Assembly: GCA_973895155.1 (NCBI GenBank)
Contig: OZ316893.1
Span: 15,840,645 to 15,904,644 of the forward strand
Direction of reading: 5' to 3'
Source of the DNA: Marsupella aquatica
Taxonomy: Eukaryota > Plantae > Marchantiophyta
Length of the DNA stretch: 64,000 nucleotides
How positions within the stretch are numbered: the first letter of the stretch is position 1; each line of letters begins with the position of its first letter. The notes beneath the pieces are model-generated. The model was not told the DNA's origin and ran no database searches. It saw only the letters and a list, made by a program, of their open reading frames with translations. Position numbers and translations under genes: made by a program. Of this stretch, positions 1 to 47,219 are shown in pieces.

Positions 1-880
1 CAATGTAGAAGAAGGATTCTTCTCGTGTTGTTTTTGGATTTTTTCTATTGCTATTTTCTCAACACTTCTAGACCACACCTTTCGACATGGATGGTTGTGC
101 ACCCCCATATGGATTGCAAGACGTGACATGTGCTTTATAGTGTTAGCCTCTATCAAAACTTGCAGGTACATATAAAATATTTTTGCTGGACACGATTCAA
201 CACAAAATGGAACTTGAAGACAATAACGACAAACAATTCCACCAGCATCGATCAACCTCCTGGGACAATGTTGACCAGCAAGCTTGGGGATCCCATCCCA
301 TGCTGTACAATTTCTGCCTTGAGTCCTAGTGTAAAACTCACATGCTCTATTTTGACATTTGAGAGAACCACTGCAGCTGACTTTCCCGAACTCCCACATC
401 TTCGAGAGGACATTAGCTGAAGTAGGGAAAATTTGAGTCCATGGATAGCAGCCCTTGGATCGATCCATGTTTTGCAGATGATCCCCTTTGGAGCTGACAC
501 CTTCAACTCGCGGAAGCTCAAATATGACATTCCCATTGTATCCTGCAGGTAACCATTCAACCTGCTCATGCCTGAATGACTTGGACCTAACAAAGTGGGA
601 TAACTCACTTTGTCCAATTGATTTCAATAAGGCATCAAGTGCACTTCTTCTGTACACAACCGGGATAGGGTGAGTTAGAGGATGCACATCATCAGACCTC
701 TCCAACACAGTCACTACTGGTGGTATCTGTGGCCACAACAAAGTGGACTAACGCTCTCCTTTTTTATCTCACTCGCCTTCAACATGGGCAGGGATTCACT
801 CTCAGAGAGTTCGGCATCAGACGTCAGGTCAATCACCTTGTGAGATAATTGAGGCTTCTCCACCTTCACATGAATGAGAT
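1..880 (-). pseudogene. MULE-family transposase paralogue A, N-terminal GCM-like zinc DNA-binding region; runs off the window edge
   Basis: A manually translated minus frame (not in the ORF track) is open from about 745 to 1: HEQVEWLPAGYNGNVIFELP...NMDRSKGCYPWTQIFPTSAN...CSGSLKCQNRAC...CRYCLQVPFCVESCP...MSRLAIHMGVHNHP. It is colinear with the transposase at 51031-51927. There is a stop or frameshift near 750 and the start is uncertain. Confidence 0.75.
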
Positions 881-2546
881 ATTTACAAAAGGCAGTAAAT
901 AGCAAACATCGAACTATATGTTCAGGACTGGTAACAGCAAAATTTCCTGTTATGGGTGCACATTTCTCCTGGTATTGTGGCAAAATTTCCAAAAACCGTT
1001 CCCAAAATACTGATACTTCTGCGATGCCGAATACTAGCGCTGGACGGTTATAGGCAAAACAAACACAAACGCATCATGCCAAATACTAGCGCCGGGCGTT
1101 CAAACCCTAAATAATGAAACATCAATCGCCCAAACATGCCGAATACTAGGGTTGGGCGCTGCTTTGTGAAGCAAATCACGAGAACGTAGGAGTGATGTTC
1201 AGGCTAAGATCCAACTAGAAACCAAACATTTCCAACAGTCTAAGTTCAATATCAAAGTACAAAAGCAGGACTTAACCAAGGTATCTGAGTCAGAACTTGA
1301 AACGGGAAATTGAAAGAAAAGAAACCCGATATTTTTTCTTCAAATCAAACATATTGTCCTCGATGTACAAATATTGCTACAGGGAAACTCTAAAGTTTCA
1401 GACAGAATAGAGAGCATAACAAGAGAATTCCTTGTAACCATAAAATTGTAACTAGCGCCAGGCGCTAATACTCCTGGTGGGTGCTTCCTCGTACCATGTC
1501 CTAGCTCGAAGAGTGACAATCATTGTCAATCCCAGCGTCCTGACAATCTGGATCTTGGCGGAAACCATGTAATCAGAAGTTGACATATGCTCTCGTGGGC
1601 CGTCAATGCACTGGTCTCCGAAAACCGACTTCTAGGAGATTTGTATCTTGAAAGTTGTCACGTCGTCAGCCTAGGCCTTAACTCGGGCTTCGGCTTAGAC
1701 AGGCACATCCGTTGTCAATATGAGGGTTCGGGCAGGGAGGGAGGCACGGAATGCACCTAAATCACATAAACTAGCGCTAAGTGCACCTATTGTCATATAC
1801 AGACACCTCTTAGGTATGGTTTGTGTTCCGCCGCCGGAACATACCTCAGTCGATAGCAGGATCAACCCCGACTTACGGGCTTCTAAGCCTTTGTGTTGTC
1901 CGCCTTTGATCCGGATTCGATGGTATGGGTACTAAACCCGGGCTCGCAACCACTTACCCGCAAGCTGCACCCCATGCATGACTTGGGTAGTGCGTTTGGC
2001 CAAGCGTTGGCACCTATACACGAGATTCACACATATACATACGCACAAGCATACAATCTCGATTTACACGAAGGAAATAGTGGGAAAGGATTTTACTACA
2101 TAGGAGACATATGCATACACTTAGTTGACCCGAAAGCCCTGGAACGAACAGGTCCGAGGCCAAGGGTGTACACTACAACGGAGCCCGGCTCCGCACTTGC
2201 CCAGCGAGCTTAGTCCTACACCCTCCCCTTGGTACTCTTTCACTCCCAGAGGTCGGGACTCCCCGCACATACCGCGGATGTCCAACATTGAGACTAAAAA
2301 CCCCTGCCTCTATCGAGGGGTGCACTAAATACTAAGGGCCGAGGAACGGAGTGCCCTCGTGCCCGAAGATTTGCTAACTAAGGTCCTAACTAAGCTGGCT
2401 GTCAGGCCGGAAAATGGCTTGTCTTATTAGAAGATCCTAATCTACGCAGGTTGTACAGCATGGCAGTGCTGCTTTAACTAGGGCAGGTGCTTGTCCCTAT
2501 AGCCTAATTTAGCTATTCCTAACTCTACTCTAATCCTACTCCGCCG

Positions 2547-5030
2547 CTAATGCCTGGCATGCTTGCCAGAGCCGCTTGAGTGGGAGCGGCTATCCCGCTG
2601 CCTTCTGAGCCTGTCGGCGTCCTGCTTGAGTAGCTGGACCTGGTCCAGCAGAGATTCGTTTTCCCGCTTCGCCGCGTCTGCCTCTTCCGCGGCCTCCTGG
2701 CATGCCTCCTCTAGTTGCTGGGTGTCGCTCGTCAGCTTGTCCACCAACTGGGCCTACTTTGTGACTTCTCCTTGAAGCCACGCCACCTCTGCCTTCAGGG
2801 TGTCAATCTCGGCTGTATCCCGTTGAGACCTGGAGTCAGCTTCCTCCAGATCTTTTTGCCAACTGACGGCTTGCCCCTACAAACCATCAATCTTGGTTCG
2901 GAGCTGCGTGATCTTGGTGTCCTTTCCAAGCCCGACCTGTATTGCTAACGCGGCTTGGGCTCTAGCCTCGGCGACCTGGTCCTCCGTGGCCGTTACCTGA
3001 GGCCGTAGTTGCTGGAGTTCAGCCTCCAAGGTTGCCACTTTGTCCTTTAGGTAGGCAGACTCAACCCGATATCGCTCTATTCTCTGCGCGGTCTCTACCT
3101 GCGCATGTCCTGCCCTTACTACCGCAACCAACTCCTTGTTGAAGAAGTAGGCCACCCTCCGGGCCATGTATTCCCCGGTGTCCCGAGAGATCTGTTGCGA
3201 GAAATCTCCCAACAACCCGTTCAAAAATGTGCCTGGCGCAAAGAGTTCCGGATGGTCTAGACTGTGTCCTTCTGGATTCGGGCACGGGCAGACTCCAACC
3301 CGTGCGGGAGTAGGAGTGGACACATCCAACCCTTGAGGTAAGTCGGTCAAAGGAGCTGGTCCCACTGGAGGTGGATGGTTCTCCTGCACAACCACGGGGG
3401 GTGGAGGAATCTCCCTGGCTACCATGGCATCTGCTTTGGGTACGGCTTCACCCGACCTGGCTTCGATGGCATTGTCCCGATTGATTGCGTCTAAGGTCGC
3501 AATAACATCAATGGGTATGCTTGGCGGGGCGGCAGCGGCGGGTTGCAGGGCCAGGGTAGCAGGACTTGCAGCTGCCAGACTTTGGGCCTTGGGCTGCAGT
3601 CACCTTACCTGGGCTGGGAACACCCATTTTGGCGGGGTCAGCTTGGGCTCGTTGAGACGCGGGAGGCTCGGGCGGTCAAAACGAGCATACCACTTGAGGA
3701 TGATTTTGACGTGGCTAGCGAAGTACGCCCTTCCGCCAAGGTACAAAGTCTTCCTTCTCCGCTCCATCTCCTCGTGGAACTTCTTGACGAAGAAGGACGC
3801 CCACTTCCTGGGCCGATAGTTCTCCACCTGGATGACCTGAGCGGCCGATATTTCTCCTCTGGGTTCCATCATGTGGAGGGCATACCGCTGGAACTCTAGG
3901 CGTTCTGCTACCTTCGGGATGAGGCACATCCTCATTAAGAACCCATTGTCCACTACCCCCTCGGCCGGGAAGCTAGATGACTGGTATTTAGCTCCCTTGC
4001 CCCCAGGAGCCCGCGACTCTACCCGGTTTATCCCCTCGGGTAAGCCAAAAATCATCTTCAGACGTGCCTCATCGAGACACATCACTCTCCCGTGCGCTCG
4101 GGTTTGTTGGCAGGCCTCGTCGAAGTTCTCAATGAACTCCGTCATATCCTGCCCGTAATACCTGCTTCCGTTCCAAGGGAGAGAGGCGAGGTGCTCAAAC
4201 CCCTGGGTCTTCAGATAGCATGCATGCTTGGGGTGGAAAATGTTCTTGTGAACGTTGTCCCCCATGCGATGCATGGTCAGCTTGGCTACCGTGGCCAAAG
4301 GCAACCCGGATACGGCTGCGGGCTCCTTCCTCTTCCTACCCCAAGACTGATTACCGGGGTGACTAGAAGAAGGGGACATCTCTCCTTCCTCTCGGTCAGG
4401 TGGTGGTAGCGCGACTGCCGTGAGTATTGGTGCCGGGGCCGCTAGCGTTACCGTGTTATCCCCTCGGGCTTGCTGGAGTGGTGCTGGGTTGTTCGTACCC
4501 CGTGGTTGTCGATTCAGAGGAGGGTGAGCCTCCTCATCTTTGGAGCTAATATTTACCGCATTCACCACAGATCATACTCGGAGAGGTGGTGGAACCGGTG
4601 GCGGGGACCGGCTTGGCTGAGGCCGAGGAGGTGTAGGTGCGGGTACGAGCACGGGTTGGCCGGCACTGGTCGTTGATGGTAAAGTTGCCATGAAGTTCTA
4701 CAGGTGCCGGTGGAGGTTTTTTGATGCAAGTGAAGATGGTCCTGTCGACCAGGTAGTGTTGAACTTGCCGTTGATGATAGCCCGGACCCGAGCGGGGATG
4801 TGGTCGAAGTGGTGCCGCTGCAAGTCAATCATGTCCGGAATATTGAAGACCTCGTCTGGAAGCCGAAGCAATGCCTCCCAGAATCCGATGTATTTGCCTC
4901 CGTCGAAGAAGTACCCTGATACCTCTTCGGGTCTGTAAAGCTCGCTCTGGGATGGGTACTCAAAGTTAAGGAGATAGTGGTGACGGCCTGCTAGGCGGAT
5001 GGCTCTCTCGTATTTGCATTCGATCTCATA
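2547..5030 (-). pseudogene. PMD (plant mobile domain)-like plus coiled-coil protein, about 830 codons, broken by TGA/TAG stops
   Basis: ORFs 3600-4568, 2877-3425 and 2547-2747 plus upstream sequence are in one frame, separated by single stops. The core GFEHLASLPW..TEFIENFDE..TRAHGRVMCLDEARLKMIFGLPEG is homologous to 49361-50410. The C-terminus is heptad-rich. Confidence 0.6.
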
Positions 5031-5625
5031 TCAGCGCGGGTTGGCATGTTTCAATGAGTCGGCCAAGTGCCCTCCGATAGAGAGGAACTGAGTCCAGAAT
5101 CGTATGGCCGAACTGGAAAGGATTGTGTGCGACATTCAGAGGAGATAGCAAGTGACTAAGGAAAAGCGAGAGAGCTGGGATCGAAGCCGGCGCATGGACT
5201 GGAGAGCTGGCGTACTGCAAAGGATCGGCCCCCCTTTTATACCCTGAGAGCTTGTCAATCGCCCGATGCCTCCTCGTCGCTTATAGGCCGAGCCTTTCAC
5301 GCTCGCAGTGTACCGGCCCCTTTGCCAGTCCAGGTCAGCTCGTGTCAGTGGCCGCCTCCCGGAGTTTGTTATACGGACCCGAGGGAGGGGGAAAAGGGCC
5401 CATTACACACTCGCAACCCAGGTGTGCGAATGGCGACACGCCGCCAGCCCGATCATGAATTCTCCTTATTGACTAATGATTTCCTACTCATAATGGCTAC
5501 CTAAATACTGTCGTTATGCTAATAATAACGGCCTAAGATACCCCTAATGCGTGTGCTAAGCATGGTTAGACCGAATTACTCATTACCCGTCATACCGACG
5601 GCGTCACAAAAGTCGACGCGCCCGT

Positions 5626-7089
5626 AGTGGTGGACCTTGCCACCCAGCGCCCTCACCAATCCCAGCACTCATGCCTAAGTGCCCCTGGTGCCCGAACGCC
5701 TCCATGGAATACCTCGAGCAAGCACCCTAGTACCTCTTGCACCACCAGCGGCCCCATACAAAGCCGCCTTGCTCACCCACATGACCGCTACTCAACGGCC
5801 TCCTTGTCTGCACAAGCAACCAAGCACCTTGGTAAGTAACCCTCCAGGATCTAGAACTTGCCAAGTCTAGCATCCTAACTCAAGCTCAATAGACGTTGGT
5901 AAATAGGTCAGTGATAGGTCCTCCCGATGCCATAAGCCGTAACCAAAACCCACGCCCACTGTCTGTCCAAAACAACTCCTTCCTTGGGCACGGCCCGGGT
6001 TCCCCCTCGTACCTATCCATCACCAACTGACCTCCCTTACCTCAGGACATGCTCATGGCCCAAATAGCGTAGCTTGTACTAAAGCTTGTCCCAAACTTGT
6101 CCCAACACGCCGGGACCAACTCCCGGTTCGCTCCACTGATGGTCTAGGGGCCAGACACTCTTGGGACTCAACCTCCACACCTACTTGGCCTTGCCTCCCC
6201 AGCGCAAGCTCCCTTGGGAGACTGAACGCGACTTGGCTGCCGTTCGGCAGGATTTGGCAAGCGGGCCAGTTAACACCCGCAAACCCCGAGAATCCAAGGT
6301 ACCCCCAGACCCAGCTGAGCTCAGGAGAGCGTAGCCCTTCTTGAGAGCTTTCCAACGCATCCAAGAAGTCTTCCAACGGACTTCCCGTTAGGAAGATATC
6401 GCCATTTCCGTTTGGCGGTTTCCCTTAGTGTCGCGACCGCCACGGCGCACGACTTCGGCTCGCCTTGGCCCCCAAGGAGACACCACTCCCCTCATGTATG
6501 CTTCTGGAGACCTGCCACCCCCGGACCAGCTTTGGTACCTAAACATTTGACCCCCAACCCAGATCCTATTGCGCATAATGGGCACGCCACCAACTGACAA
6601 CGCCCATAACTTTCTCGTTAGGCATCCGCAAGCGGAGTGCCTTAGCCCGTTATGATCGGGCCGACCCAGTGCTCATGCCTAGGCCCTCAGGTCTCATCGC
6701 CGCTCAGGGCCCCCGACCGGCCCAACCCGGATCAGGCCGTAACTTGCGCCCCAAGCGTCCGTTGCCCCTGGTGTCAACTCCATTGGCCTTGGGCCCAAGA
6801 GGAGCTCACACTCAAGCCCTTAGAACTCAAAGTCCCTCCGGAGGTCCGGACGGCCATCCTTGAGTCTGGCCCATTTCCCCTTGACCCGACTAGCTATCAG
6901 CTAGTCCAAGTCCTTAGTGTGTATCCCCAGCTTGGCTCCTTGCCTCGCTAGTGCCACGTCTCATTGCCCACAAGTCTCCCCATGCTAAGTCCTCCCCGGA
7001 TGGCCTATCCGGGCCTGGAACATAAGGGAGCTCGGCGTCGGAGTCAGCAACGCCGGAGCTAAGTGTTAAGGTAGTCAAGTTCCACGACT
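5626..7089 (-). mobile_element. Solo LTR (1464 bp) of the chromovirus family at 12970-46143
   Basis: It is the reverse complement of the LTRs at 12970 and 44651. Termini are AGT...ACT and the 5-bp TSD CCCGT lies at 5621-5625 and 7090-7094. Confidence 0.95.
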
Positions 7090-7261
7090 CCCGTACATCT
7101 CCTGAAGTCGACCATGGAGAGGCGGTGGCACTTGCATGGGTTTGGGCAGGTGAACAGAAAACCTCTCCATAAACGGTGGCGATGGAACATCACGCTGCCA
7201 AGGTATGTTCCTCTCCCCGGGACTGATACCTTCATCCGGCGGAAGATGGAGGCGATTGACA

Positions 7262-7503
7262 AAGTCTGTGGTTTCTATCTCAACAGATTCAGTCCTTGTC
7301 TAGAAAGAAGTAAAGTGAGTCAAAATGGGAACAACGGGATCTCCTTCAATAACCCTATCTGCGCCAATCTCCATTCCCATATCTCTAACAATACCAGAAT
7401 TATTAAGATCCGTATGCGGCCCTACATTGGAACTTTGAAAATGGCCTTCCATGGAATCGAGAAGGGAAAAATGAGAGCACTGGACTTTGAAAGAAACAAC
7501 CAT
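7262..7503 (-). pseudogene. Decayed unknown ORF of the MULE region; continues at 1651 to about 1468 once the insertion is removed
   Basis: ORF 7300-7503 reads through a TAG and across the insertion junction in frame, with further TGA/TAG stops. No domain was recognised. Confidence 0.35.
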
Positions 7504-7972
7504 TGTGCGGAACTGAAATGTTTTGATATCCTTGAGATAACAGTATGTTTATAAGGCACTTGGATTTCCCGTTATTGGTCCTCTTGTCGGTACCAGTCGC
7601 CGACTGAAAGCCAAATGACCATTGGGCAAAAGCGACAAAATTAAAATGGAAACTTCCAACGTATTTTTATGAGGGGGTACATTTTTGGGGAGCGTCGGGC
7701 GCTAGTTAAACAAAGGAGAGGAACCCACACAAAGGACGTTACGAAAGACCCCATTACCAGGTTTGACAAACCCATTACCAATTGAATGGAAGTGACAATC
7801 TCCCTCAAACTCAATTCCAATTTAATAAATTCAATAGCGTCAGGCGCTAACAAAAACCAAGGGCATACGCGTACAGTTGAGAGGCAGTTTGACCTAATAG
7901 AGGAAAAAATTGCTACCCTTCAGTGTCAGATTTTGAGCTATCATTCTGGGAGCTATGAGATCTGTCGGTCGA

Positions 7973-10900
7973 TTATGCCTCATCATCAATATACTTGCTT
8001 CTAGAAACATCATCTACGTAGGGGTTCCTTGTGAACTTCCTGTCTACTCCCCTAAGAAGCCTAAGTCCTTTTGTTTCCCAGCAAAGTGTCCTAAATTTCT
8101 CTGCCTTCCTTGCGATATGCTCAGCGTATGATGGCAACACAAACGGCTTCTTGAGAGTGATGATTACATTTCAAGCCACTTTCCTCCGGAGTTGAAACCA
8201 TTTTCTTTGGTTCCATTCTGACCTACTCAAAAGAGAAACGGGAGATAAAGAGGAAGTAAGTACTTAGCCGATAGAACCGATGGAATTAAAGGTTAACCAA
8301 CAATTGAAAGGATTAAGGAGCTTAAGAGAGATGAAAATTACTTGGAAGACTCTTCACTATCCTCCGTTGACCCCTCATGTCGACTTTCCTCTTTCCCACC
8401 GTCATTGACATCCTCAGGAACATCATCTTCTAGCGTACCATCATCTTTGTCCGAATCAAAGTTGAGGACAGATCTAAGTCTATCTTTCTTTTTTGGTCCA
8501 GTTATTTGAGGAGGGGGAGGTTGTGTCTCCAAAGGTTTAGGAGAAATGAGGTCCAAAAAAATCCTCAAAGCGGTCTCAACAAACTCCCGACAATTTTCTA
8601 ACCCGATGACAAAATGGCCTGAGTAATCCCCAACAATGAACGTACTACTTGAGCCGATAGTCCAATCAATTACAATATCCTTAGGTATCATAAAGAGTTC
8701 AAGGATAGTTTGCATAAAACCAACCGGTAGTCGGGCATTCCCAGTAAAATGTAGTTCAGGACAATAATCTTCCTTCAAAGCTTGTAGCTCAATAAGGTTT
8801 GAGATTGAAGGATCTTTGACGCTAGACAACGGCTTGAACCTTGGATCCTTTGGGACCTTTCCTTTCAAAGAAACTCGACAAAATATATTCAGTCTAAGAG
8901 TGAAGACCTGCAAAAGTTGACAAACCAACTGGATTTTAAAAATCTCTTAGTCATCAGAGAAGAACTCCAAAAGAAAAAATAGCGTCGGGCGCTAGTATAG
9001 CTAGACTCAGAGAAAACATTTACCTGGACGTCTGTCTTGGATCTATACATTGGGACAGACATGAAAACATTGTGCGTATTGATGCACATGAACTTCTTGG
9101 ATTGCTGACATGCAGAAATGACCTGGGAAATCTAATCGTGGTCTCCGAGTATAAGATAGCAAGCATGCCATCATTCAAAAGGAAAGGATCCATCGCTCGG
9201 AAAAATGATTTGGCTGCTGTGTGATCTGTTACATTCTATTTCGGGACCCGACGATCAACAATTGTGGGTTTCAATCTAGTTGGGAGATAGATGAAGCCCG
9301 CATTCACCCCAAATGATTGTTCCTTCCCACCTCTAATGACTCCTTTATCTCTACACCCCGACTTGATCAAATCCTTACCCCACTTCTCAGCATCTGCAAC
9401 CCAATCTGGCTTCTCTTCCTTACTAAATGCACTATCTATGAATTCTGCCAAGCTTGATTCGACCATACAGTGTCTTTCGACTTTGCTCTTGAAATTCCCC
9501 ACATCCCATTGCAGACCAGCCCCAGAAGCATTATCTCGTGACGATTCCCAGGCATCGATGGTCCTTTTCTTCTTCTTCTTTGTGCTTGTGGCATCCACAG
9601 GAACTATAACCTTCCCCTTCTCAACTAGGGTGATGGGGTCTGGATTGGCACCAGTGTTGGCCTCAGAGATTTCTGGTGTTGCATCTATTTTTGTATCATC
9701 CGTGGCACCATCAGATTTTCACCCACCTACCAAAGCACATTGTCAAACACATAAAGAGTGTTAGCGCCAGGCGCTGGCCAAACACCCACATTAATATCAG
9801 AAAATAAAACATATTAAACTCATGACACATAATAGCGCCAGGCGCTACCAAAGAAGGAAGTCGGAAGAAGGAGGTGTAGCATACATTTTTTCCCAGTCTT
9901 GGCACTAGCACTTGCTACAGGGGCATCCGCCTTGGCTTTGGATCTTGGCTTTTAGCTTCAATCAACATGAACCATAGTGGTTTTGCATTTTTTTTGCAAC
10001 TCAGTTGTCGACGCGTTGACGTCTCCCTCAATTCCTTGCTTCATATCGGAGACAAATTTCAGAGGAACTTGGGATTTTGACAGTTTATGGAAAGCGTCCT
10101 TCTCAATGTCATCAAATGGAGAATCCCATCTGTTGGTGTCAAGATACTAGGGGCAATGAATTCTCTCCCACTTTGACAATTTCCTTGGCGGAAGGATTCC
10201 CTCAGCGGGATACATGGAATACAGTTTGGCCAAAAGGTCTCCATCTGTGCAGATGACCCAATTCTGGAAAGCAGCTGGGTAAGCCCAAAAATAATCAAGC
10301 TTCACAATCTCCATGTGCATGAAGAAACGATAGACATATCGTTTCGCTCGCTTTTGATTCTTGAGTGTGTCGTCTTCCTTGTTCGGGTACTTGGACATCC
10401 ACATGGTATTGAAAAACTTACCTTTCACTGCATCCCCAAATTTCTTGAAATCGTTACACACTATTTCAACGAGTGAGTCATAAGACTCACACTTCCATTC
10501 CTCCAATCGTTGGAAGGAATTATTTCACTGATCTGTTGGAGGGCAGTCTGTAGCATACCAATGGCAATTCCCTCCACGCTATTCCAAGTTTGCCATGTGT
10601 GGCACCACTGCTTCACAGGGTCATTGCTAATGCTTTGCTTTGTGGATGAAAGAACTGTTTCCTGAGCTCTGGCGTGCAATGCGCTACTAACAAAGTGCTT
10701 CTCAATTTGGGGTCGAGGGCGGAGACTGCAATGAATAACCTGGCACGATCCATGGTACAGACAACCGCATCCGGTTTCTTCTCATGTTTGTTCACCTCTG
10801 TCATCGGGTACATCTCAGCGCAAGTTGTCATGATCAGAAGTCTTCAAACTCTAGACTCAACAAGGGAGATCTTTGAGACCTTGATCGCCCAATCCTTCAT

Positions 10901-12082
10901 TGCTTCTTTCATCATGACCGCACGTCATTTGGACGTCTCTTCTTGAGACCAAGGATTTCCCTGAGCGGTAGCCAACTCCAGGTCCATCTTGAATTGACGA
11001 GAATAGGATTTAATCTTATTCTCGCATAAGATATACAAAAGTGCTTCTTGAGGCATTTTCTTAGTATACCACGATCCCTTTTGAGTCTTCTGCATCACTT
11101 GCACAAACTTCTTGAAGTTTGCCCCATCAATGATTGGATTATAGTATTCTAGATCGTTGGACAAAATCCTTTTAATTCTGTCAGCATCAAGTATCCAGGA
11201 AGGTTCCACCACGGCCTGTCCAAGTCGATAGAAGAATTTATCAGTCAATAGTGCCAGGCGCTAGTAAAAAAGCATACTATGAACGAAAGACATTGAAATT
11301 CGAAGAGAGACTTACTGGTTCACAGTATGCATAGCCGCCTCAATCTCAATCAAAGATTCCTTTTCACCCTTGAAAATAGTACATTGCACACGCAGGTGAT
11401 ACTTGATATCATCGGGATTTTCTTTCGTAATGATCTACCATGCGTAAAGTTGATGGTTACCATCAAAAACATAAAACATCTTATCCTGTAAGACCCTGAA
11501 GTCTAGATCGGCCGCACATTCAGTTTTAAACTTCTCATTCTCTGCCATCCGTGACATCCGGTCCCAGGTTGCTCATATTTCCGGAGTACATGTCTGGACA
11601 TTCCCATTCGAATCTGCCGGCTGGACATAAAAAAGCATTCCAATTTTTGAGTTATATCCTGTGCTCCGAAAAGAGTCCTTCAACTTTTCAATTGAAGGAC
11701 TTCCCTTTTGTAAGGTGCGGAAAACTTCCATGTGAACCAAGCAACACATTGGAATCCTTGGCGGGTCTTTGTCGTGCCCTCGGAAATCCTTGCCAAACAA
11801 CATAACGTGTTTGGAGATAACGTCGGACATTGTGAGCGACATTTCTCCTCGATCTTCCATAGCATATGTGTCGAGATCGTCCATCTTCGCTCTCCTACTC
11901 TTTGGAAATGTGACAACCGCGATTGTTTCAGGAGCTTGGGATGCTGTAAACCGTGTCACATGATGACTGTAAACAGATCCAGAAAACAAGCACTCGGACG
12001 TTTGGGAATGGATCTGCTCTCTCTGCCCGTTAGCACTATACCATGGATGCGAGGTGGTGGGGAGAGGGTCCATGTTTTGCAT
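7973..12082 (-). pseudogene. Multi-exon ParB/Srx-like N-terminal domain fused to a beta-class-like amino (N4C/N6A) DNA methyltransferase domain
   Basis: The N-terminus reads IPMCCLVHMEVFRTL..IEKLKDSFRSTGY..FYV..KMFYVFDGNHQLYAW (11438-11479; the ParB GNHR motif with CGA>CAA). The C-terminus reads RLPVGFMQTILELFMIPKDIVIDWTIGSSSTFIVGDYSGHFVIGLENCREF (about 8580-8735), resembling KP..L...I......GD.VLDPF.GSGTT......GR..IG.E. A degenerate motif-IV-like GFIYLPTRL..VPK(W)N followed by PFLLNDGMLAILY lies near 9150-9300. Candidate GT-AG introns are 11315-11216, about 9023-8908 and about 8341-8223. There are several stops and frameshifts. Confidence 0.7.
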
Positions 12083-12969
12083 ACCCCAAGTTCTTCACGA
12101 TCGTGATGAGTATCTCATTCATACCGTACTTCTTCTAGAGAATTCTTGCACGAATAACCTCTGAAACGGAACCTAAATACAGCAGACAAGGAAGGTGGAG
12201 AGAGTATCCTCTCTAAACTATCCTCTCGCTACATTGATATCTATCTAGGACATTCTCTTGAAAGCCACTTGTCAACTCCGGATTAGTTGTTGGAATACCG
12301 TTGGCATATCTTCAACGTTACGCAAACCTAAAGTTACCGTTGAATATGACCGTTAAATAAATAATGCGATCAATTTCATCTATATTCTTTAGGTGAAATC
12401 TCATATTGGTCAATAGTAATGCCTGGCGCTACCAAAAACTCTCAATATTGAAACCCTAATTTTTCCATAAGTTAAACAAATTTGACTCTGAAGTATAAAA
12501 TAAAAAACAAAATGAATACATATTTTTGAATATTTGTCCTTAAATGAATGTCATGATTGCCGATTCAGATTAGCGCTCGGCGCTAATATAAAATCTCCCC
12601 ATTTTTGGCAATATTTTAGAATATTTGTAAAATAGCTACAAACATTTAGGATTTATTCTGAAATCCTAGATATTAGCGCTTGGCGCTAAATATAAAATAT
12701 ACCAGTTTTAGGCCACAATTTAGGGTGTAGGTTTTAGTAGCGCCTGGCGCTAAACATATATTTCACCATTTTAAGTCCAAATTGGAGTGTGTATGTTTTA
12801 GTAGCGCCAGGCGCTACTCAATTATGGTGATTTTATAAACATGATTATGTTGTTTGGAAAAGGACATCTTAGGCTCATTAGTGTAAATGTCATTGACATA
12901 ACAACAATAACATTTATTGTGTCAGATGTGCTTTCACCCGGAAGTGATTCTGTCGTATTCTAACGGCTC

Positions 12970-14443
12970 AGTTGCGGAACTCGACTACCTTAACACTTAG
13001 CTCCAGCGTCGCTGACTCCGACGCCGAGTTCCCTTATGGTCCAGGCCCGGATAGGCCATCCGGGGAGGACTTAGCATGGGGAGACTTGTGGGCAATGAGA
13101 CGTGGCACTGGCGAGGCAAGGGGCCAAGCTGGGGACACACACTAAGGACTTGGACTAGCCTATGGCTGGTCGGGTCAAGGGGAAATGGGCCAGGCTCAAG
13201 GATGGTCGTCCGCACCATCGGATGAACTTTGAGTTATGAGGGCTTGGGAGTGAGCTCCTCTTGGGCCCAAGGCCAATGGAGTTGACGCCATTGGCAACGG
13301 ACGCTTGGGGCGCAAGTTGTGGCTCAATCCGGGTTGGGCCGGTCGGGGGCCCCAAGCGGCGATCAGACCTGAGGGCCTAGGCATGAGCACTGGGTTGGCC
13401 CAGTCACAACGGGCTAAGGCACTCCGCTTGCGGATGCCTATCAAGAAAGTTATGGGCGTTGCCAGTTGGTGGCGCGCCCATTATGCGCGATGGGATCCGG
13501 GTTGGGGGCCAAATGTTTAGGGACCAAAGCTGGTCCGGGGGTGGCAGGTCTCCAGAAGCATATATGAGGGGAGTGGTGTCTCCCTGGGGGCTAAGGGCGA
13601 GCCGAAGTCGTGAGCCGCGGCCGTCGCGATACTAAGGGAAACCGCCAAACGGAAATGGTGGTATCTTCCCAACGGGAAGTCCGTTGGAGGACTTCTTGGG
13701 TTCGTTGGAAATCTCTTGAGAAGGGCTACGCCCTCCTGAGCTGAGATGGGTCCGGGGGTGCCATGGGTTTTTGTGGTTTGCGGGTGTTAGCTCGCCCGCT
13801 TGCCAAATCCTGTCGAACAGTAGCCAAGCCGCGTTCAGTCTCCCAAGGGAGCTTTCATTGGGGAGACAAGGCCAAGTAGGTATAGAGGCTGAGTCCCAAG
13901 GGTGCTCGGTCCCTAGACCATCAGTGGGGCGAACCGGGAGCGGTTGCTAGAGTTGGGGCCATTCTGGTCCCGACGTGTTGGGACAAGCTTTAGGACAAGC
14001 TACACTAATTGGGCCATGAGCATGTCCTGAGGTCAGGGCGGTCAGTTGGTGATGGATAGGTACGAGGGAGAACCCGAGCCGCGCCCAAGAAAGGAGTTGT
14101 CCTGGACGGACAGTGGGCGTGGGCTCTGGTTTCGGCTTATGGCATTGGGAGGACCTATCGCTGACCTATTTACCAATTTCTGTTGAGCTTGAGTTAGGAT
14201 GCTAGACTTGGCGAGTTCTAGATCCGAAGGGGTTACATACCGAGGTGCTTGGTTGCTTGTGCAGACAGTGAGGACCGTTGAGTAGCGGTCGTGTAGGTGA
14301 GCAAGTGCGGCTTCATATGGGAGGGGCCGCAGGTGGTGCTAGAGGCACTTGGATGCTTGCTCGAGGTATTCCGTGGAGGCGTTCGGGCACTTAGGCATGA
14401 GTGCTCGGATTGGTGAGGGTGCTGGGTGGCAAGGTCCACCACT
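12970..14443 (+). repeat. 5' LTR (1474 bp), AGT...ACT
   Basis: Direct repeat of 44651-46143 with scattered transitions and small indels. Confidence 0.95.
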
Positions 14444-24696: not shown

Positions 24697-24840
24697 AAAT
24701 GCCTTTGTACCTTAAATGCTAAATATATTTTACTTTCTGTGCAGTCTGCTAAATTGTAGAGTCTATCTAAATGCCTTTGTACCTTAAATGCTAAATATAT
24801 ATTACTTTCTGTGTAGTCTGCTAAATTGTAGAGTCTATCT
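24697..24840. repeat. 72-bp tandem duplication just upstream of the PHD ORF
   Basis: AAATGCCTTTGTACCTTAAATGCT... starts at 24697 and 24769; the copies are near-identical. Confidence 0.9.
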
Positions 24841-24851
24841 CATGCGCAGGC

Positions 24852-25532
24852 ATGGCACGGCCTAAAATTCAAGCCAAAAAGCGTGTGACAGAGGTGAGAA
24901 ACACAGGTGTACTTGGGGCAGATGCTACTAACTTCTCTGCAAGTCAGATTTTCCAGAAGGCAGCTCATTGTTGTGCCATTTGTGACGATGGTGGGGGCCT
25001 GGTCATTTGTGAGGGCCCTTGCATGAGGCATTTCCACCTCAACCCGGAGTCTGACCTTGCTGCAGAAAACAACTGTCCAGGGGTGGGCCTCCCGTCAACA
25101 CACCAGGGAGACTGGATGTGCACTGATTGTTTGGAGAAGCAGGCTAAGTGTGCACAGTGTGGGAAGTTGGGGTCCTATGAGGGCTCTGTTGATGCTGCAG
25201 CAAATGTTAGGAAATGTCCAGACCGTTTTTGTGTGAGATTTTTCTGTTTTGAGTGTTTGCCTGCTCATGCCACAGCTTGCCCACTTCATAGGTGCAAGGC
25301 ATGTGGTGAGCATGATGATGACTACTGGACTGACATAGTCCACTGTGCTAGGTGTCCCACTATGTGGCACTATCATTGCCTGAAAGATCATCAAGCAGAG
25401 GGTTATGCTTGTGACAGAGAAATCTATGATCACTCTGCACATGGTGTTGATCGATGGATATTTTATTGTCATCGCCATGCCATTGATCCTACCTCGCGCA
25501 CTCCTGTGAGAGATCACATATCTTGGTTGTGA
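24852..25532 (+). CDS. Stand-alone EDM2/NSD-type composite PHD-finger protein, 226 aa (CACTA cargo)
   Basis: CAICDDGGGLVICEGPCMRHFH..WMCTDC..CAQCGKLGS..C..FC.RFF..CPLHRCKACG..CARCPTMWHYHCL..WIFYCHRHAIDPTSRTPVRDH follows the EDM2 PHD region motif by motif, as I recall it. Confidence 0.85.
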   Translation: MARPKIQAKKRVTEVRNTGVLGADATNFSASQIFQKAAHCCAICDDGGGLVICEGPCMRHFHLNPESDLAAENNCPGVGLPSTHQGDWMCTDCLEKQAKCAQCGKLGSYEGSVDAAANVRKCPDRFCVRFFCFECLPAHATACPLHRCKACGEHDDDYWTDIVHCARCPTMWHYHCLKDHQAEGYACDREIYDHSAHGVDRWIFYCHRHAIDPTSRTPVRDHISWL

Positions 25533-26118
25533 AGCTGAACATTGTACATGCACAGTGCACCTGATGTGGATGTACTATTTTTTGAGATTGCAGAGATTCC
25601 AATTTTGAAAAGGAGTTGGGTAGGCGAGTTTATATAGGCAGCACTTATCTTGTGCTCTGGCGTCAGTGGCTGGGTACATGCCTATACAAACTTATCCTTA
25701 CAAGCCTTCTTGGAAGTATTTAGGCTGAGTGGTCATTTTCATAAACACTTTCATCACACTGCTAAATTAAAACAGGACTTCTAAGTTGTAAGCGTATAAA
25801 TTATCAGGCATGCAATTAATCAAATTGCCCTATAAGTTTGTCATTGAATGTATCCTCCTTTACAACAAAATATGTATGTGCCATGACAAGTTGGTTGCAC
25901 TTCATTTCACCACGGATATGGATTTTGTAGTATATATTCAAACAATGTCCTACATCCGTGCAGGTGCCTAGTACGTATTGTTCACATATCCCTTGTACCT
26001 ATCAAAATCGGATCTGAGCACCAGTGGGCCAGATCAACTCAAAAAGCAGGAATTTTGTTGTCCTTGTATTGTCAGGTGAACCCATTCTTCCAAAATTCAC
26101 TGTCATCACGTAGGGTGT

Positions 26119-26997
26119 GTGTACATGGAGCCTGGTAAACGTAGAAAGTGTGACCACCCAGCAGTGTTTACAGGGGTCAGAGCGATTTTGGTCCATGGCC
26201 AGCATGGGTTGACCAAAGTGCATTGGCCAACTGTACAGAAACGATTCTCTGAGCTCCATGGCACTGTAGTTCAGGACATCACTCCAGAGACTACACATGT
26301 TGTTGCAGGGACATGGCTATCAGTGATAAAGAAGTGGTCATGGTCCTACATGAATTCTGCAATTACTAAGCAAGGCCTAAAAGTAGTTGAGGCCTCTTGG
26401 ATCACAGATTCCATAGCACATAAGATTGTACAGGATACTGAGCAATATGAGTTGTGGGAGGATGAAGAAGCTAATGCATCAGCTTGGGCTGAACAAGAAG
26501 TCTGGGAAGCAAAGGCACGGCTTGCTGATCTCCAATATGGACCTGTACTCAACAAAGGACAGAGCTCTACAAGGCTGAAGAGTATGTTGGCTGAGGAGAC
26601 GAAGCAACCAACCCCCATTCTGAAAGGGCTGAGCATGGTATTTGTGGAGGCGGGAATTGGAGAGGTTAAGTGCAAAGTGTACAAGTCCACAGTGCTTGAC
26701 CTAGGTGGGACAGTGGAGGAGAATATAACAGAGGACACCACTCATGTCATTACTAAGTCATATCCCAAAGCCTGCCGCAAGTTTGGGAAGGGACACATTC
26801 GCTTTTATGTCATGTCCCATAATGTGTTTGTGGTTTCATATGCTTGGCTTGTGGAATCAGTAGCAGCTGGGAAGCGTCAAAACCCAATGGACTATGATCT
26901 TTTTGAGGCCTGGCCACGGAAGGGTCAGGATCCTTACAGAGAGGACTATGAGACAACAAGTGAGGAATGGGTCATTAGCGATTCTGAATCAGAGTGA
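26119..26997 (+). CDS. Tandem BRCT-domain protein, about 290 aa, with DNA polymerase lambda-like BRCTs (CACTA cargo)
   Basis: Two repeats: VFTGVRAILV..GTVVQDITPETTHVV..VVEASWITDSI..YEL and ILKGLSMVFVEAGI..LGGTVEENITEDTTHVI..VVSYAWLVESVAAGKRQNPMDYDL. The ORF is intact. Confidence 0.85.
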   Translation: MYMEPGKRRKCDHPAVFTGVRAILVHGQHGLTKVHWPTVQKRFSELHGTVVQDITPETTHVVAGTWLSVIKKWSWSYMNSAITKQGLKVVEASWITDSIAHKIVQDTEQYELWEDEEANASAWAEQEVWEAKARLADLQYGPVLNKGQSSTRLKSMLAEETKQPTPILKGLSMVFVEAGIGEVKCKVYKSTVLDLGGTVEENITEDTTHVITKSYPKACRKFGKGHIRFYVMSHNVFVVSYAWLVESVAAGKRQNPMDYDLFEAWPRKGQDPYREDYETTSEEWVISDSESE

Positions 26998-27430
26998 GGA
27001 GTAGTAGCATCAGTTTGGACACAAGTTTTTTTGTATAAATCAGATCATTGAAATAAATGTGATCTTTGAACTAATGTACCTTGTTATGGTTGGTGGCAGT
27101 TGGGCTTATTTTACTGTTGGCGGATTGTTGTTTCCTGCTGCCTGGGGTTGTCACTGTAAACGTACATGCAGAGGCGGTACATTTGAGGACAGCGGAGGAG
27201 GTGGTGACACCCTCCAACATTTAGAAATTTTGTGTCATTCACTTGACAATAGGTACACTACTTGCGAACCTGTTTTTTTCTTTTGGGGTGGTTTAGGGTT
27301 TGTGAGAATTTAGTACACGTTATGTTAACTCTTTTGGCAGATACAGTCAGGGATATATGGAACACAAATACCACCATTAGGCATCCTTGTTCACTGCTGT
27401 CCATGACTGCAGAGCTCCCAGCCTGTTACA

Positions 27431-30400
27431 ATGCACCCTGGTCACCACCCTCCCCAGACCCAGCCCAGGGCACAGGCACTGCCTTTGCATCATCCCACAA
27501 GGATATCACGCCATGATAATAAGCTTTGGCAGCGTGAAAGGTTACGAACCAGACTTTCAGGAGCCAGTAGGATGAGATGTCCTTGTGCAATCTGCCAAGG
27601 ATCCCGTGCCAGGGGTCTGAATGAGGTTTGGCGGCATATCGCGGTTCATGGAAGAGATCCACGACATCGAGTTTGGAATGATCCTGCAGAGGAAGATTCT
27701 TCCGACGAGGAGTGGAGGTTAGAATTTGATGCTGCCAATGCTGCAAGACGGGCAAGTGAGGTTCTGCCTGGTGCATTTGAAAATGTTGTAGCTGGTCTCT
27801 GTGGGTTGTCAGCTCTCCAACGGGATGGTGCTCAGGCAGCACCACGTGACGAAGGAATTCATGTGGAAGAGATGGTGAGAGACATCTTCCAAGACTTGGA
27901 TGCATTTCATGATGGGCTGGACAATGAAGAGGATACGGCTGCAGATGCAAGTGTGCCCCCTGTCGAAGAGCCTCTTGATGAGTTTGAGATAGGGCAGGAA
28001 ACCCCTGGGCATGATGGGATGTTTGGCTCTCCCCTGCAAATACAGGAAGGCAGGAAGTCTTTGTACCCCGGTAGCAAATGTTCTAAACTGGGATTTGTCA
28101 TCATGTTCCTGAACATTTGCGGCAACCACAATGTCCCCAACGTTTTGGTTTCTGAGTTGTTGGCATTCTTGCGAACAATTGTGCTACCAGATGGTAATAT
28201 TTTGCCCAAGAACATGTACGAGGCAAAAAGATGCATATCTAATCTTGGATTGAACTATGATTCGATCCATGCCTGTCCTGATGGGCATGTTCTTTTCAGA
28301 AAGGAGTATAAAGAATCGTTGACATGCCCTAAGTGTGGGAAGCACAGGTATCGGAACTCAGGAAAGTCTATGGTTCCCGCCAAGGTACTTCGTCATTTTC
28401 CACTCATTCCCAGACTTCAGCGGATGTTCAGAAGCCGTGCCATCTCGGAGATGATGACTTGGGCAACTGACAAGAAAAGTGATGATGGGCTACAACGACA
28501 TGCTGCAGATTCAAGGCAATGGAAACTCATAGATGAGATGTATCCCGAATTTGCTGCTGAGCCGAGGAATGTCAGACTTGGGCTGTCATTGGATGGGGTA
28601 AACCCATTTGGAGACAAGAACAACAAATTTTCATGCTGGCCTGTAACTATTTTGAATTATAACCTTCCTCCTTGGATGACTACAAAGCAATTTTTTGTTC
28701 AGATGGTCCTACTGATACCAGGGCCAGACAGTGCTGTATCTGCCAACATAGATGTGTTTCTGGCTCCCCTAGTGGAGGAATTGAGAAAGCTTTGGGAGGA
28801 AGGAGTTCTCACATATGATGTCCTACAGAGGCTTGGGAGGTTAAACCCATTCATCCTTAGAGCCATTGTCATTCTGACTATAGCTGACTACCCAGCCCAT
28901 GGGATGATATCAGGCCAAACAACAAAAGGATATTGTGCTTGTACTATCTGTGGGCGCAATGTCACCAGTGAGTACTCCAGAGCCCTGCAGAAAGTGATAT
29001 ACATGGGCCATCGTCGTTTTCTGAAGACAGATCACCCTTACAGAGAAAGACAGGCACTGATTGCACACTTTGGCAATGAGATTGAGCAACGTGGACCCCC
29101 GGCACGAGTGACCAAAGAGGAGATCAGGCAGTGGGGAGCACTGAGGGATGACTATATCAAACGAGGGGGCAGGGAAGATGGAGTGAGTGATCCAATAAAG
29201 CGATATGGTGTAAAAAGACTGAGCATATTGGACTTGGAGCTCAAGTACTGGAGGGTAAGCCTCTTGGAGTTGATGCTAATTGGGATACATGTTTTGGTTC
29301 AGAGCATGTGCATTCATTTCGAAGAGAGACTAAACTTGAGGCATTTCCTGACGCTTTTGCATTGCAACGATGCAGGAGTTTGAGCCAAGCAAACATAACA
29401 TTGATGTTATGCACATTGAAAAGAATATTTGTGAGAGTCTACTCAGATTCTTGTGTGGAGAGAAAGACACTGGTTCAGTGAGATTGGATCTTGAACAGAG
29501 GGGAATGAAACCCCATCTTTGGTTGAGGCCACATGCCCACAGAGCTGATGTGCTCTTGAAGTACCAAGCGCCCTATGTTCTGACAGACACAGAGTGGGAA
29601 CTATTTGTGCAGAGGTTGAGTTCTTTGAAGGTTCCTTCAAACTATGGCAGTGCTTTCAAGAAGCATATCATGACTAGAAAGCTTGGTAGTATGAAAAGCC
29701 ATGACTACCATATGTTGATGCAACAGGTGTTGCCTTTATGCCTGAGGGGCCTGTTGCAGAAGCCTGTTCGTACTGTGATCATGCGACTCAGTGATGTGTT
29801 TCGTCGTATTTGTGTGAAGGTTTGGGATGAAACACACTTCCCACAACTGACAGAAGATGTCGCTCAGGTGCTGTGTGACCTGGAGATTTATTTTCCTCCC
29901 GCATTTTTTGATGTCATGACCCACCTACTTGTCCATGTTGTGGAAGAGCTACACCAATTTGGGCCTGTGAGTGCTCGTTGGTTGTACCCTTTGGAACGGT
30001 ACATGAAGCTACTCAAAGGTCACGTGAGAACATATTACAAACCTGAAGCAAGCATGGCTAAAGGTTACATCAAGGATGAGACTCTGGGATTTCTGACCGA
30101 ATACATAGCACAATATGAGCATGTGAAGACCAGGGTGTGGAATTCTGATGAGGAGGAAGGGGTGGTAGGTGAAGTACTGGAAGGGGCTGCAACCACAAAG
30201 AACCTGACCATATCTATGAGAGACTTGGCACATGACTTTGTATTGCACAACACTGTGGTGATGGAACCCTGGATACAGTGAGTGCATACATGTGCTATAA
30301 TCCAGTTCATGAGCTTAAATGTTGTGTTCGTGTGGTTTTCTCCTTCAGCCTGTTCATGTTTACCCAAGCTAATGCTGTGTGGTTGTTCGTTCAGGGAGTA

Positions 30401-31160
30401 TGAGTCATTGAAGGCGGCCCATCCCATTGCAGGAACAACTTTTCCAGGTTTCATGGAGTGGATCAGAGTGGCAATTAGAGAGCATCACGAGACCCACCCA
30501 GACATGGATGCAGATGTTTACCTACTGTCTAATGCCCCTAGCCTGAAAGTGAAGACTTACAAACGGATGAGAGCATATGGGAATCACTTCCGAGTGAAGG
30601 ATGGTGACAGTGCCTACAGGGTGACGAATGACTGCGGGCTCATCACTGTATTTGAGCAACAGAGCCACAATCACGACAGGGCCTGGATGGAGATGGGATA
30701 TGTGGGAGAATTAGTTGACATATGGGCTCTGGACTATGGGGCGGTGTCCAGTCCTGTGATTCTTATGAAAGGTTCATGGGTGCGGCAGGATTGGCTTGGT
30801 AACAGGGCTACCATGAAGAGAGACAACGACGGTTTCTTGCTGGCCAATTTCAGAGGGAAATTGCCCGAATGGTCTGAGCCATTTGTGTTTCCTAGTCAGG
30901 TGGAGCAAGCTTTCTTCCTGGATGTGGAAGACTCCCCAGGTTGGCGTGTAGTGTGTCATAAACAGGCCAGGCAACGCCGGATGGAAGGATCAAACCTTGA
31001 GTTTCATTTACACTCTCATAGTGCCTTTGATCATCGGCGTTCAGACCAAGTGCCTGTAGTTCATGATAGCGGGGACTTCATTCCTGTGACAAGGGTAGAT
31101 GCATTTGCTGAAGGAGGCGAATTCAGAGATGCAGATGCCAACAGTGTGCCTGTGCCATGA
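27431..31160 (+). CDS. CACTA TnpD/Tnp2 transposase (Transposase_21, DUF4218, DUF4216); 3 exons, about 1163 aa, apparently intact
   Basis: Exons 27431-29254, 29376-30277 and 30395-31160 join in frame across GT-AG introns. Motifs: RNVRLGLSLDGVNPF, ADYPA, HNIDVMHIEKN, MKSHDYH, FPPAFFDVMTHL, RWLYPLERY and EPFVFPSQVEQAFF. Confidence 0.93.
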
Positions 31161-46143: not shown

Positions 46144-47219
46144 GGCTCTGACAAACGGATTATTCACTATGAATACCATTGTATACGTTCGAAAATGTCA
46201 TTCAGTCATTACCTACACTTCTTCCTATCTTCATATCTCACGGCTTAAGAAATGCCCCCTCCATCTAGCACCAAAAATGTGGTGCATCCCATGGCTCCCC
46301 AAACCCAAGAAACCCCCCTGCGTAGGTCGATTCCCGCAGGTTTCGTCCTTGGCGAGGCCGTTTCCGTGGCTTAGCGACATGGGACGCTGCTAACTTCCTT
46401 CTACTACTACTATTAACATTTTACACACATATACTGGACAGATCCTTCATCGGGTCATGAGATACGTAGCCGGCCTAATCTAGGCCTTCCCTTGTATTCC
46501 CCTCCTTCTCTTTAGGTATATTTGGATTCCGCCGCCGGAATGATCCCCAATTGGCTTGGTTAAGCCGCTAAGACCTCTCTCAGCTGGACACATCCAACTC
46601 TCACTCCCTTACTTACTTCCCTTCATCTATTAGTTGATGTGGGCACTCTTCACACAAGTTAATGCGACACACAAATAGCAAAATGACTCCTTTTGACTGA
46701 GTTATACCATGCACTTGCCATACAAACAGTACATCTCATACACAAGTTCTGCGAACTAAGCCGTGAGGCCAACTCTATTTAGCTCTTAGGCATGAGGAAA
46801 CATGAATATACACAAGGGTCACTGTATAACTAACCGAGAGCTTCTCTTACTACTTGATCCCAGCCCTGCTGGTGCAACTAAAAACTTGCTAAAGAAGAGG
46901 CCTTGGACTCCCCGCTGCCCAGGTACTTATCCTGGTAGTGGATCCGCCAATTCTTAGCAGCGTAAGCTTAATCTATCCTACCTATAATCTACCTAACTGC
47001 AATCTACCTATGTACAGTGAGGTAGGAGTACAAGTGTTGCTCCTACCCGTGGGTCCGCAATCCCACTAATCTAAGTGTCAGGGCCGTCTCCTGGTCCTGA
47101 TCCTCAGCCTAAACTTGGAGATCTGAGCCCGCCCTGCCCACTCACGCCTCCTACCTCCACGTCCGCCCTTCCTAAAAGGAACAGTGCCCTTGCACCGTCA
47201 CGACACCGGTGGTGGATCC

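Follow-up and report, generated by a model that had tools for sequence, protein, structure and literature searches.

A degenerate ParB-fold and methyltransferase-like gene in a liverwort, likely cargo of a Mutator-like transposon, lies within an array of 15-bp palindromes

Introduction

What would a gene that joins a ParB-like domain to a DNA methyltransferase-like domain do for a transposon in a land plant, and which protein would read the palindromes that surround it? The question is raised by a 64,000-nt stretch of the genome of the liverwort Marsupella aquatica (GenBank assembly GCA_973895155.1, contig OZ316893.1, positions 15,840,645 to 15,904,644 of the forward strand; hereafter the window), in which a first-pass annotation, made from the letters alone, had proposed that a Mutator-like element carries such a gene and parS-like sites as a new self-marking or anti-silencing system. 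Our analysis suggests, with confidence in the whole account about evenly balanced, that the window holds a dead copy, interrupted several times over, of a plant gene family present in many copies. The family is likely Mutator-like cargo, and its protein would bind the element's own palindromes and thereby shield or activate the element. The system cannot be called new as a kind, since the same architecture and hypothesis were published in 2025 for brown and red algal transposons (PMC12477816; bioRxiv 2025.02.11.637652). What is new is the land-plant, Mutator-borne form, in which the candidate binding site is defined and the active site rebuilt; the algal kind was proposed before. Literature searches, whose coverage stopped short of subscription journals, returned no paper on a ParB–methyltransferase family in land plants.

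A dead copy of a many-copy plant gene

The gene was read by six-frame translation and splice-site inspection, and all coordinates are positions in the window. It is a five-exon pseudogene on the minus strand, running from about 12100 to 7973:

11316-12100, minus strand: exon 1, disordered N-terminus and ParB/sulfiredoxin-fold domain; DGNHQ here, DGNHR in the family; two stops; start codon approximate.
9885-11225, minus strand: exon 2, a domain built of helices only, possibly the DNA-binding part, plus linker; six stops; frameshift near 10510; intron-1 acceptor mutated here.
9024-9726, minus strand: exon 3, the catalytic half of the amino-methyltransferase-like domain together with a linker; GFIYLPT (9298-9278) resembles motif IV (placed by position and pattern, profile score not significant); two stops; frameshift near 9130.
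8342-8907, minus strand: exon 4, S-adenosylmethionine (SAM)-binding motif X-I-II block (DIVIDWTIGSS, 8679-8647) and acidic tail.
7973-8222, minus strand: exon 5, conserved C-terminal peptide FxLPxYAE..NPYVDD; one stop; 31% to the tail of relative P0015 (E 1e-4) and 32% to metagenome contig L008.

The proposal of an intron-containing gene is borne out by four GT-AG introns with compatible phases. Introns 2 and 4 are in phase unaltered, intron 3 if the frameshift near 9130 in exon 3 is assumed, and intron 1 with an acceptor near 11227 that is mutated here, reads AG in nearly all contigs of four sequencing runs, and gives a join of exactly the length found in the relatives. Because it carries 11 in-frame stops and several frameshifts, the window copy is dead, as the first-pass annotation had cautioned.

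A full HMMER scan with the exon-1 read-through as query returned 154 clusters of relatives at E ≤ 1e-3 and 47 at E ≤ 1e-10; word-indexed searches that covered longer proteins only, queried with either the ParB or the methyltransferase part, had returned none. Among 30 of the 150 listed relatives that were looked up, 16 are gene models of the liverwort Riccia sorocarpa, three are from the fern Adiantum nelumboides and two from A. capillus-veneris, and none of the 30 bears a bacterial or an algal name. The Riccia models are spread over eight scaffolds and many are partial, and the collinear relatives are dispersed, multi-copy genes in Riccia and Adiantum. One of them, the 1207-aa R1sor_027256 (P0154), is collinear with the window gene (28% over the ParB and helical part, E 1e-30; 28% over exon 4, E 2e-6) and, as a gene model, holds both domains in a single polypeptide rather than on separate transcripts. 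At the DNA level, contigs from four of four runs (two studies) cover all 30 bins of the span 7090-12970, with 712-1934 contigs per run that are mostly <95% identical to it; the family is high-copy in these runs.

The ParB-like and helical domains

The canonical ParB motif is of the GERR type, whereas the plant family has DGNHR, and the N-terminal domain was recognized by structure. No match to the Pfam ParB profile (PF02195) was found at E ≤ 0.5 for the window protein (P0001) or for 27 relatives, searches of Pfam, NCBIfam and PDB by sequence or profile yielded no ParB, and the ParB-like phrog_1033 was matched at E 0.15. An AlphaFold2 model built from 117 sequences (mean predicted local distance difference test score, pLDDT, 79.5) is confident over residues 90-260. 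All of the top 10 Foldseek rows against the PDB are ParB, Noc, KorB or sulfiredoxin (Srx) structures (E 0.045-0.14), and the viral list consists mostly of phage ParB-like proteins. When the Foldseek list was compared again with VIA, the domain aligned to Myxococcus xanthus ParB with Z 7.8 and a root-mean-square deviation (rmsd) of 2.5 Å over 91 residues, and 30 of the 31 rows are named as ParB/Noc/KorB/PadC/Srx/SerK/SbnI-type or are hypothetical proteins, which we take to be ParB-like. Thus no single structural match is significant, but the lists agree on a predicted ParB/sulfiredoxin fold, in keeping with the ParB-type domain first read from its motif.

That motif, expected as FYVFDGNH(R)L, reads FYVFDGNHQL at 11476-11447; all of it stands except the arginine, which is Q in this copy and R in 95/113 aligned relatives. 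Across the family the G-N-H-R residues are conserved in 109/114, 114/114, 105/114 and 95/113 sequences, respectively, so that the phosphate-binding Arg of the GxxR motif is kept (G 109/114, R 95/113), as are an Arg at 126 (81/93) and an Asn at 259 (89/95). By motif register, Arg126, the DGNHR Arg and Asn259 would match three phosphate-binding residues of M. xanthus ParB, for which the roles of these residues and of the hydrolytic Glu, E93, have been described (PMC13229309). At the E93 position, two residues before the Arg, 114/114 rows have Asn, and by its catalytic motif the family is not a canonical ParB. Moreover, since ParB folds can bind CTP, ATP, GTP or nothing detectable (bioRxiv 2025.10.10.680097), a CTP clamp is not to be assumed; of the CTP-clamp proposal in the first-pass annotation, the fold is retained and the nucleotide chemistry is weaker than had been stated.

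The full-length model of P0015 shows, after the ParB-like domain, a helical domain predicted with confidence (residues 305-600). One chain of a Noc–DNA complex (7ol9_B) aligns across both domains (Z 8.4, rmsd 4.6 Å, 203 residues), and the other ParBs align at 12-15 Å, which is a hint of a ParB-like DNA-binding part and no more.

The methyltransferase-like domain

A SAM-binding block had been read at the C-terminus, and exon 4 indeed matches PF01555 (N6_N4_Mtase) at E 8.8e-6, with 26.3 bits just under the gathering cut-off of 26.7. The window protein and three Riccia proteins score 26.3, 26.2, 24.8 and 23.7 bits (E 1e-5 to 5e-5), and phage DNA methyltransferase PHROGs are matched as well. A family profile searched against the PDB gave six rows (E 0.12-0.78): five are titled as beta-class DNA methylases or as a putative modification methylase, and the remaining one is CcrM. 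The permuted beta-class order that had been noticed, with a degenerate motif IV ahead of motifs X-I-II, is found in the window and in P0154, P0155 and P0121; the methyltransferase half of the full-length model has a pLDDT under 60.

The catalytic motif of the clade is [DNSH]PP[YFW] (PMC4738411). Where DPPY or SPPY would be expected the window reads YLPT, as had been cautioned, and six relatives read DLPT (three times), DMPT, DMPS and DVPF, so that the first Pro is absent in 6/6 and the aromatic residue in 5/6, while D-x-P and a downstream Trp are kept in 6/6. The window YLPT is assigned by position and pattern; the family motif-IV profile ranks window exon 3 first, at a nonsignificant E of 1.5-2.7. 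The Gly-rich motif I reads FAGGWG in P0154, LGAGTG in P0121 and WTIGSS in the window. Thus the domain order is beta-class, motif IV is rebuilt in the family, methyl transfer is doubtful throughout, and by catalytic motif these are not canonical beta-class methyltransferases. The proposal of a mark other than 5-methylcytosine (5mC) keeps its methyltransferase-like domain and loses strength at motif IV.

An array of palindromes in non-coding DNA

The 15-bp palindrome TAGCGCCNGGCGCTA occurs at 19 sites in the window at ≤2 mismatches, whereas 100 dinucleotide shuffles contain 0.09 on average and never more than 1. Eleven sites lie in 7095-12834, five in or after the transposase described below, two before a second transposase and one at 58883; the interval 12835-50874, with the nested inserts, has none. 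All 19 are non-coding (11249 falls in intron 1 given the acceptor of the other copies), although coding sequence makes up about two thirds of the span, and some palindromes sit within tandem units of 52-64 bp. The cluster of five that had been reported is thus present, with 14 more sites elsewhere in the window:

12417-12816: five palindromes upstream of the gene, at 12417 and 12571 and, within a 64-bp tandem repeat, at 12674, 12738 and 12802.
7690-11263: six palindromes, in the 3′ flank (7690, 7835), intron 3 (8980), intron 2 (9762, 9833) and intron 1 (11249).
52833-55591: five palindromes, two within the intron of the transposase (52833, 52946) and three in its 3′ flank (54747, 55511, 55577).

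The site at 58883 is degenerate and stands with a 92-bp stretch 83% identical to 55043-55134 in the segment 58883-59084, beside a long interspersed nuclear element (reverse transcriptase 60824-61804), which suggests an end fragment of a third related element.

Linkage to Mutator-like transposases

Two transposase remnants and two large inserts bear on the element to which the gene belongs:

50970-54535, plus strand: Mutator-like transposase pseudogene, 5′-truncated; Cys/His zinc-finger-like region 51430-51717, FDVM (D1) 52162-52188, FMTDNA (D2) 52366-52398, DAFH 52453-52467, intron 52711-53006, SES (E) 53046-53069, SWIM-like region 54347-54418 (SWIM E 0.056).
1-1467, minus strand: remnant of a second transposase related to the first (58% aa identity; copy at 1-900), comprising its 5′ part; palindromes stand at 1087 and 1453, degenerate versions at 1035 and 1145.
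12970-46143, plus strand: long terminal repeat (LTR) retrotransposon in which further elements are nested; 94% identity between its LTRs; target-site duplication (TSD) GGCTC; no palindromes.
46149-50969, minus strand: the other insert, also high-copy, which terminates with CA at 50969 and has no matching left end; replaces the transposase 5′ region.

A Mutator-like element (MULE) transposase had been claimed, and a Mutator-like pseudogene is found on the plus strand, opposite to that of the gene. FDVM, FM[AT]DNA and DAFH are shared by the window transposase and four of four long relatives, with a D–D spacing of 68 aa. This resembles the spacing of the IS256/MULE type, which has D175, D241 and C262/H265, with 66 aa from D to D in ISCth4 (PMC7780238, PMC5225508). 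The DDE residues are assigned by motif and C/DxxH is also common to hAT; the 50970-54535 frame had no MULE or Transposase_mut match in Pfam, PDB searches by sequence or profile matched no transposase, and viral contigs had no match to the one transposase pattern tried. Mutator-like is offered as the best label for this pseudogene.

The gene had been placed head-to-head with this transposase, about 0.8 kb away once 38 kb of nested elements were removed. The window does not bear that spacing out, since only 12970-46143 is a clean insertion and the second insert has no matching left end. The contig depth of the second insert falls about 16-fold at 50970 (run X1), and in each of three runs two contigs continue ahead of 50970 with sequence that the window does not contain, so that a portion of the element was lost at this junction. 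The window alone is ambiguous on which transposase the gene pairs with. The transposase N-terminus of the relatives was found neither at the left junction nor elsewhere in the window. A junction at 12835/50874 (TSD ATTTT, 7-bp terminal match) was rejected, since the high-copy insert continues to 50969.

Linkage was also seen outside the window. A metagenome scan whose query was two palindromes in tandem, and neither protein, returned nine loci. In one of them, the 1.3-kb contig L008, the last exon of the gene (minus strand, E 1e-9) stands back to back with the SWIM tail of the transposase (plus strand, E 9e-9), together with four palindromes. L008 has no blastn match to the window and looks like an internally deleted derivative of the divergent pair, in a distant subfamily. 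As it joins the 3′ ends of both genes, it supports a single element, and gene, transposase and motif are found together in a copy other than that of the window, as transposon cargo would be. Four GC-rich contigs from the same scan (L001, L004, L005 and L007) carry paired TAGCGCTNAGCGCTA-type palindromes 62-73 bp apart and match neither protein.

Between the left transposase and the gene, a small reading frame (1470-1655, 5614-5625, 7095-7600) is continuous across both insertion junctions once the inserts are excluded, with 152 aa open at 7096-7551 on the plus strand. It is repeated in the sequencing runs, has no Pfam match and has palindromes on both sides; it may be a third gene of the element.

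What reads the palindromes, and to what effect?

In the account that we propose, the ParB-fold and methyltransferase-like gene and the Mutator-like transposase would form one divergent element, which we consider quite probable. The accessory protein, not the transposase, would read the palindrome as a dimer through its helical domain, a step that we narrowly favour. A nucleoside triphosphate (NTP) at the conserved R/DGNHR/N site would gate binding, a proposal on which we are evenly divided, and CTP-dependent sliding of the protein seems rather unlikely. The effect would be sequence-specific protection from host silencing, as for VANC, the accessory protein of VANDAL transposons; by analogy this is plausible, at a little less than even confidence. 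That the methyltransferase-like domain still transfers methyl groups to DNA would be somewhat surprising given its motifs, and a DNA-binding coat with an altered or idle methyltransferase is favoured. In its most far-reaching form the account would have liverworts and ferns carry a widespread Mutator-like family with an imported, phage-type ParB/parS-like loader: an NTP-gated clamp would load on a 15-bp palindrome conserved across distant subfamilies and spread, and a DLPT methyltransferase would write or mimic a non-5mC mark that defeats silencing. This full version is unlikely.

Several results count against the proposed account. The first-pass annotation had not included the second transposase, which flanks the gene on the opposite side and likewise has the palindromes upstream, and the junction at 50970 is not a clean insertion. 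No terminal inverted repeat (TIR) or TSD above background was found for the Mutator-like element in this rearranged copy with undefined ends. The other eight of the nine tandem-palindrome loci match neither protein, so that linkage outside the window consists of one 1.3-kb contig. Foldseek gave no match at E ≤ 0.001 for the ParB-like domain, Z for the domain alone stays below 8 in a VIA comparison that is a second look at Foldseek's list only, and the helical domain, as modelled, has no clear known fold. In addition, phage ParB partners of DNA-modifying enzymes can function without the NTP residues or a DNA-binding domain (PMC13229309).

The accessory protein might instead be an active writer of N4-methylcytosine (4mC) or N6-methyladenine (6mA) that is loaded onto the palindromes and labels the element encoding it, a reading we hold to be improbable by a fair measure. 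The retained D-x-P and Trp, the Gly-rich motif I of the relatives, the beta-class names among the PDB rows and the conservation of the domain from liverwort to fern all speak for it, and an Ectocarpus protein is predicted to make one of these marks (PMC12477816); the missing first Pro, the loss of the base-stacking aromatic in five of six relatives and the YLPT and WTIGSS of the window copy speak against. The main rival reader of the palindrome is the transposase, whose N-terminal zinc-finger region would bind these sites, with the ParB–methyltransferase protein as a non-reading helper. Palindromes upstream of the second transposase, in the intron and 3′ flank of the first and beside the transposase tail in L008 argue for this and so against our proposal. 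However, the accessory gene itself has six of the sites in its introns and 3′ flank, at a distance from any evident end, and a perfect dyad suits a symmetric dimer, of which ParB on parS is an example. From published work, the AtMu1 transposase alone activates its cognate copies sequence-specifically (bioRxiv 2026.08.24.746577) and MULE ends bear subterminal repeats (PMC5225508), whereas inverted-repeat arrays accompany ParB-bearing genes in another transposase superfamily (bioRxiv 2025.02.11.637652). On balance, reading by the transposase is a minority prospect.

A different history is that nesting and deletion joined the gene and the right-hand transposase from different copies or elements, and that the gene pairs with the left transposase or is non-autonomous cargo. 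The unclean junction, the lost transposase 5′ end and the lack of a TIR or TSD fit this. Moreover, without a TG..CA insert (1656-5608, TSD AAAGT) and a solo LTR (TSD CCCGT) the second transposase comes near the 3′ end of the gene, with its palindromes about 0.8 kb from 7690. Yet in L008 the two 3′ ends face outwards, which is the arrangement that deletion within a divergent pair would leave, and the Ectocarpus gene likewise lies on the strand opposite its transposase (PMC12477816). We consider such a mixed origin unlikely, and it would alter the history of the window copy more than the family model. Least probable by far is a captured, Pack-MULE-like host gene with no role for the element. It would account for the spliceosomal introns and for a conserved exon-1 end, at which 46 of 150 listed matches stop, but the relatives are dispersed, multi-copy and often partial, palindromes have amassed in the gene's own introns, and the domain pair is typical of phages (bioRxiv 2025.10.10.680097) and of algal transposon accessory genes (PMC12477816).

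Other features of the window

The remaining features concern the inserts themselves. A 1.47-kb LTR family (12970-14443, 44651-46143, 5626-7089) has non-canonical AGT...ACT ends and 5-bp TSDs and is represented by one full element and one solo LTR. A Copia element at 31841-37711 has identical 197-bp LTRs, TSD GTTTA and a 1575-aa open frame, and is a very recent insertion. On the plus strand of 24825-31160, open reading frames that encode three NSD-like PHD fingers (24825-25532) as well as two BRCT domains (26080-26997) stand directly ahead of a CACTA/EnSpm transposase (Transposase_21, DUF4218, DUF4216), possibly a CACTA element with chromatin-reader cargo. The GC-rich inserts 1656-5608 and 46149-50969 contain long minus-strand coiled-coil frames without a Pfam family, and the former has TG..CA ends.

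Comparison with known systems

VANDAL transposons belong to the Mutator-like superfamily. VANC21 binds motifs in introns and in intergenic and terminal non-coding regions (PMC5735166), and the plant system resembles VANDAL/VANC in having an accessory gene and a short motif amassed in just such non-coding DNA, partly as tandem repeats. It differs in its protein folds, which are of other families, in having a palindromic 15-mer rather than a short asymmetric motif, and in a palindrome conserved between distant subfamilies, whereas VANC targets diverge fast (PMC5735166). The analogy that the first-pass annotation had drawn with VANC thus holds for the layout and not for the proteins.

Like phage ParB–N6_N4_Mtase fusions and ParB/Noc/KorB clamps, the plant protein has a predicted ParB fold N-terminal to a permuted amino-methyltransferase and a conserved phosphate-binding Arg (bioRxiv 2025.10.10.680097); unlike them, it has about 600 extra residues with a large helical domain, has introns and falls below all Pfam, PHROG and NCBIfam ParB thresholds. 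With Marchantia DN4MT1 and rotifer N4CMT it shares a beta-class amino-methyltransferase domain in a eukaryote, but those are host enzymes with SPPY and demonstrated 4mC activity, DN4MT1 described without extra domains and N4CMT with a chromodomain. The family could bear on the origin of the 4mC enzymes of liverworts. If the account is true, a bacterial partition-type loader would act on eukaryotic chromatin, which could give a programmable tool for spreading. The family lends itself to study: Riccia R1sor_027256 is an apparently intact member, the candidate site is known to the base, and genetics can be done in liverworts.

The closest likeness is to algal transposons. The Ectocarpus element Sola1-1_Ec32 has, on the other strand from its transposase, a gene for a 1104-aa protein that is ParB-like and an N4C/N6A methyltransferase; its authors put forward a class of accessory proteins, each of which would bind the element that carries it and modify it (PMC12477816). 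The plant family agrees in the domain pair and its order, in the length of the single protein (about 1100-1200 aa), in the position of the gene opposite a DNA transposase and in the role proposed; it differs in its land-plant host and Mutator-like carrier (a brown alga and Sola there), its defined 15-bp palindrome and its non-canonical motif IV, the likeness being one of architecture. Plavaka elements of the red alga Bostrychia have arrays of inverted repeats next to the genes PAG2 (PF01555 and SET) and PAG3 (ParB-like and 2-oxoglutarate oxygenase), and in Chondrus homologues are found in Plavaka as well as Mutator elements (bioRxiv 2025.02.11.637652). There too ParB-like and amino-methylase domains are cargo and the arrays are proposed as ParB sites, but the domains lie in separate genes with other partners, whereas in the plant family they are fused and the sites extend across introns and flanks. 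Algal ParB–methyltransferase accessory genes have been a proposed second route, which the plant family extends to land plants and Mutator-like carriers. Thus, by analogy, the feature would work like the proposed algal self-binding accessory systems, in a layout like that of VANDAL/VANC.

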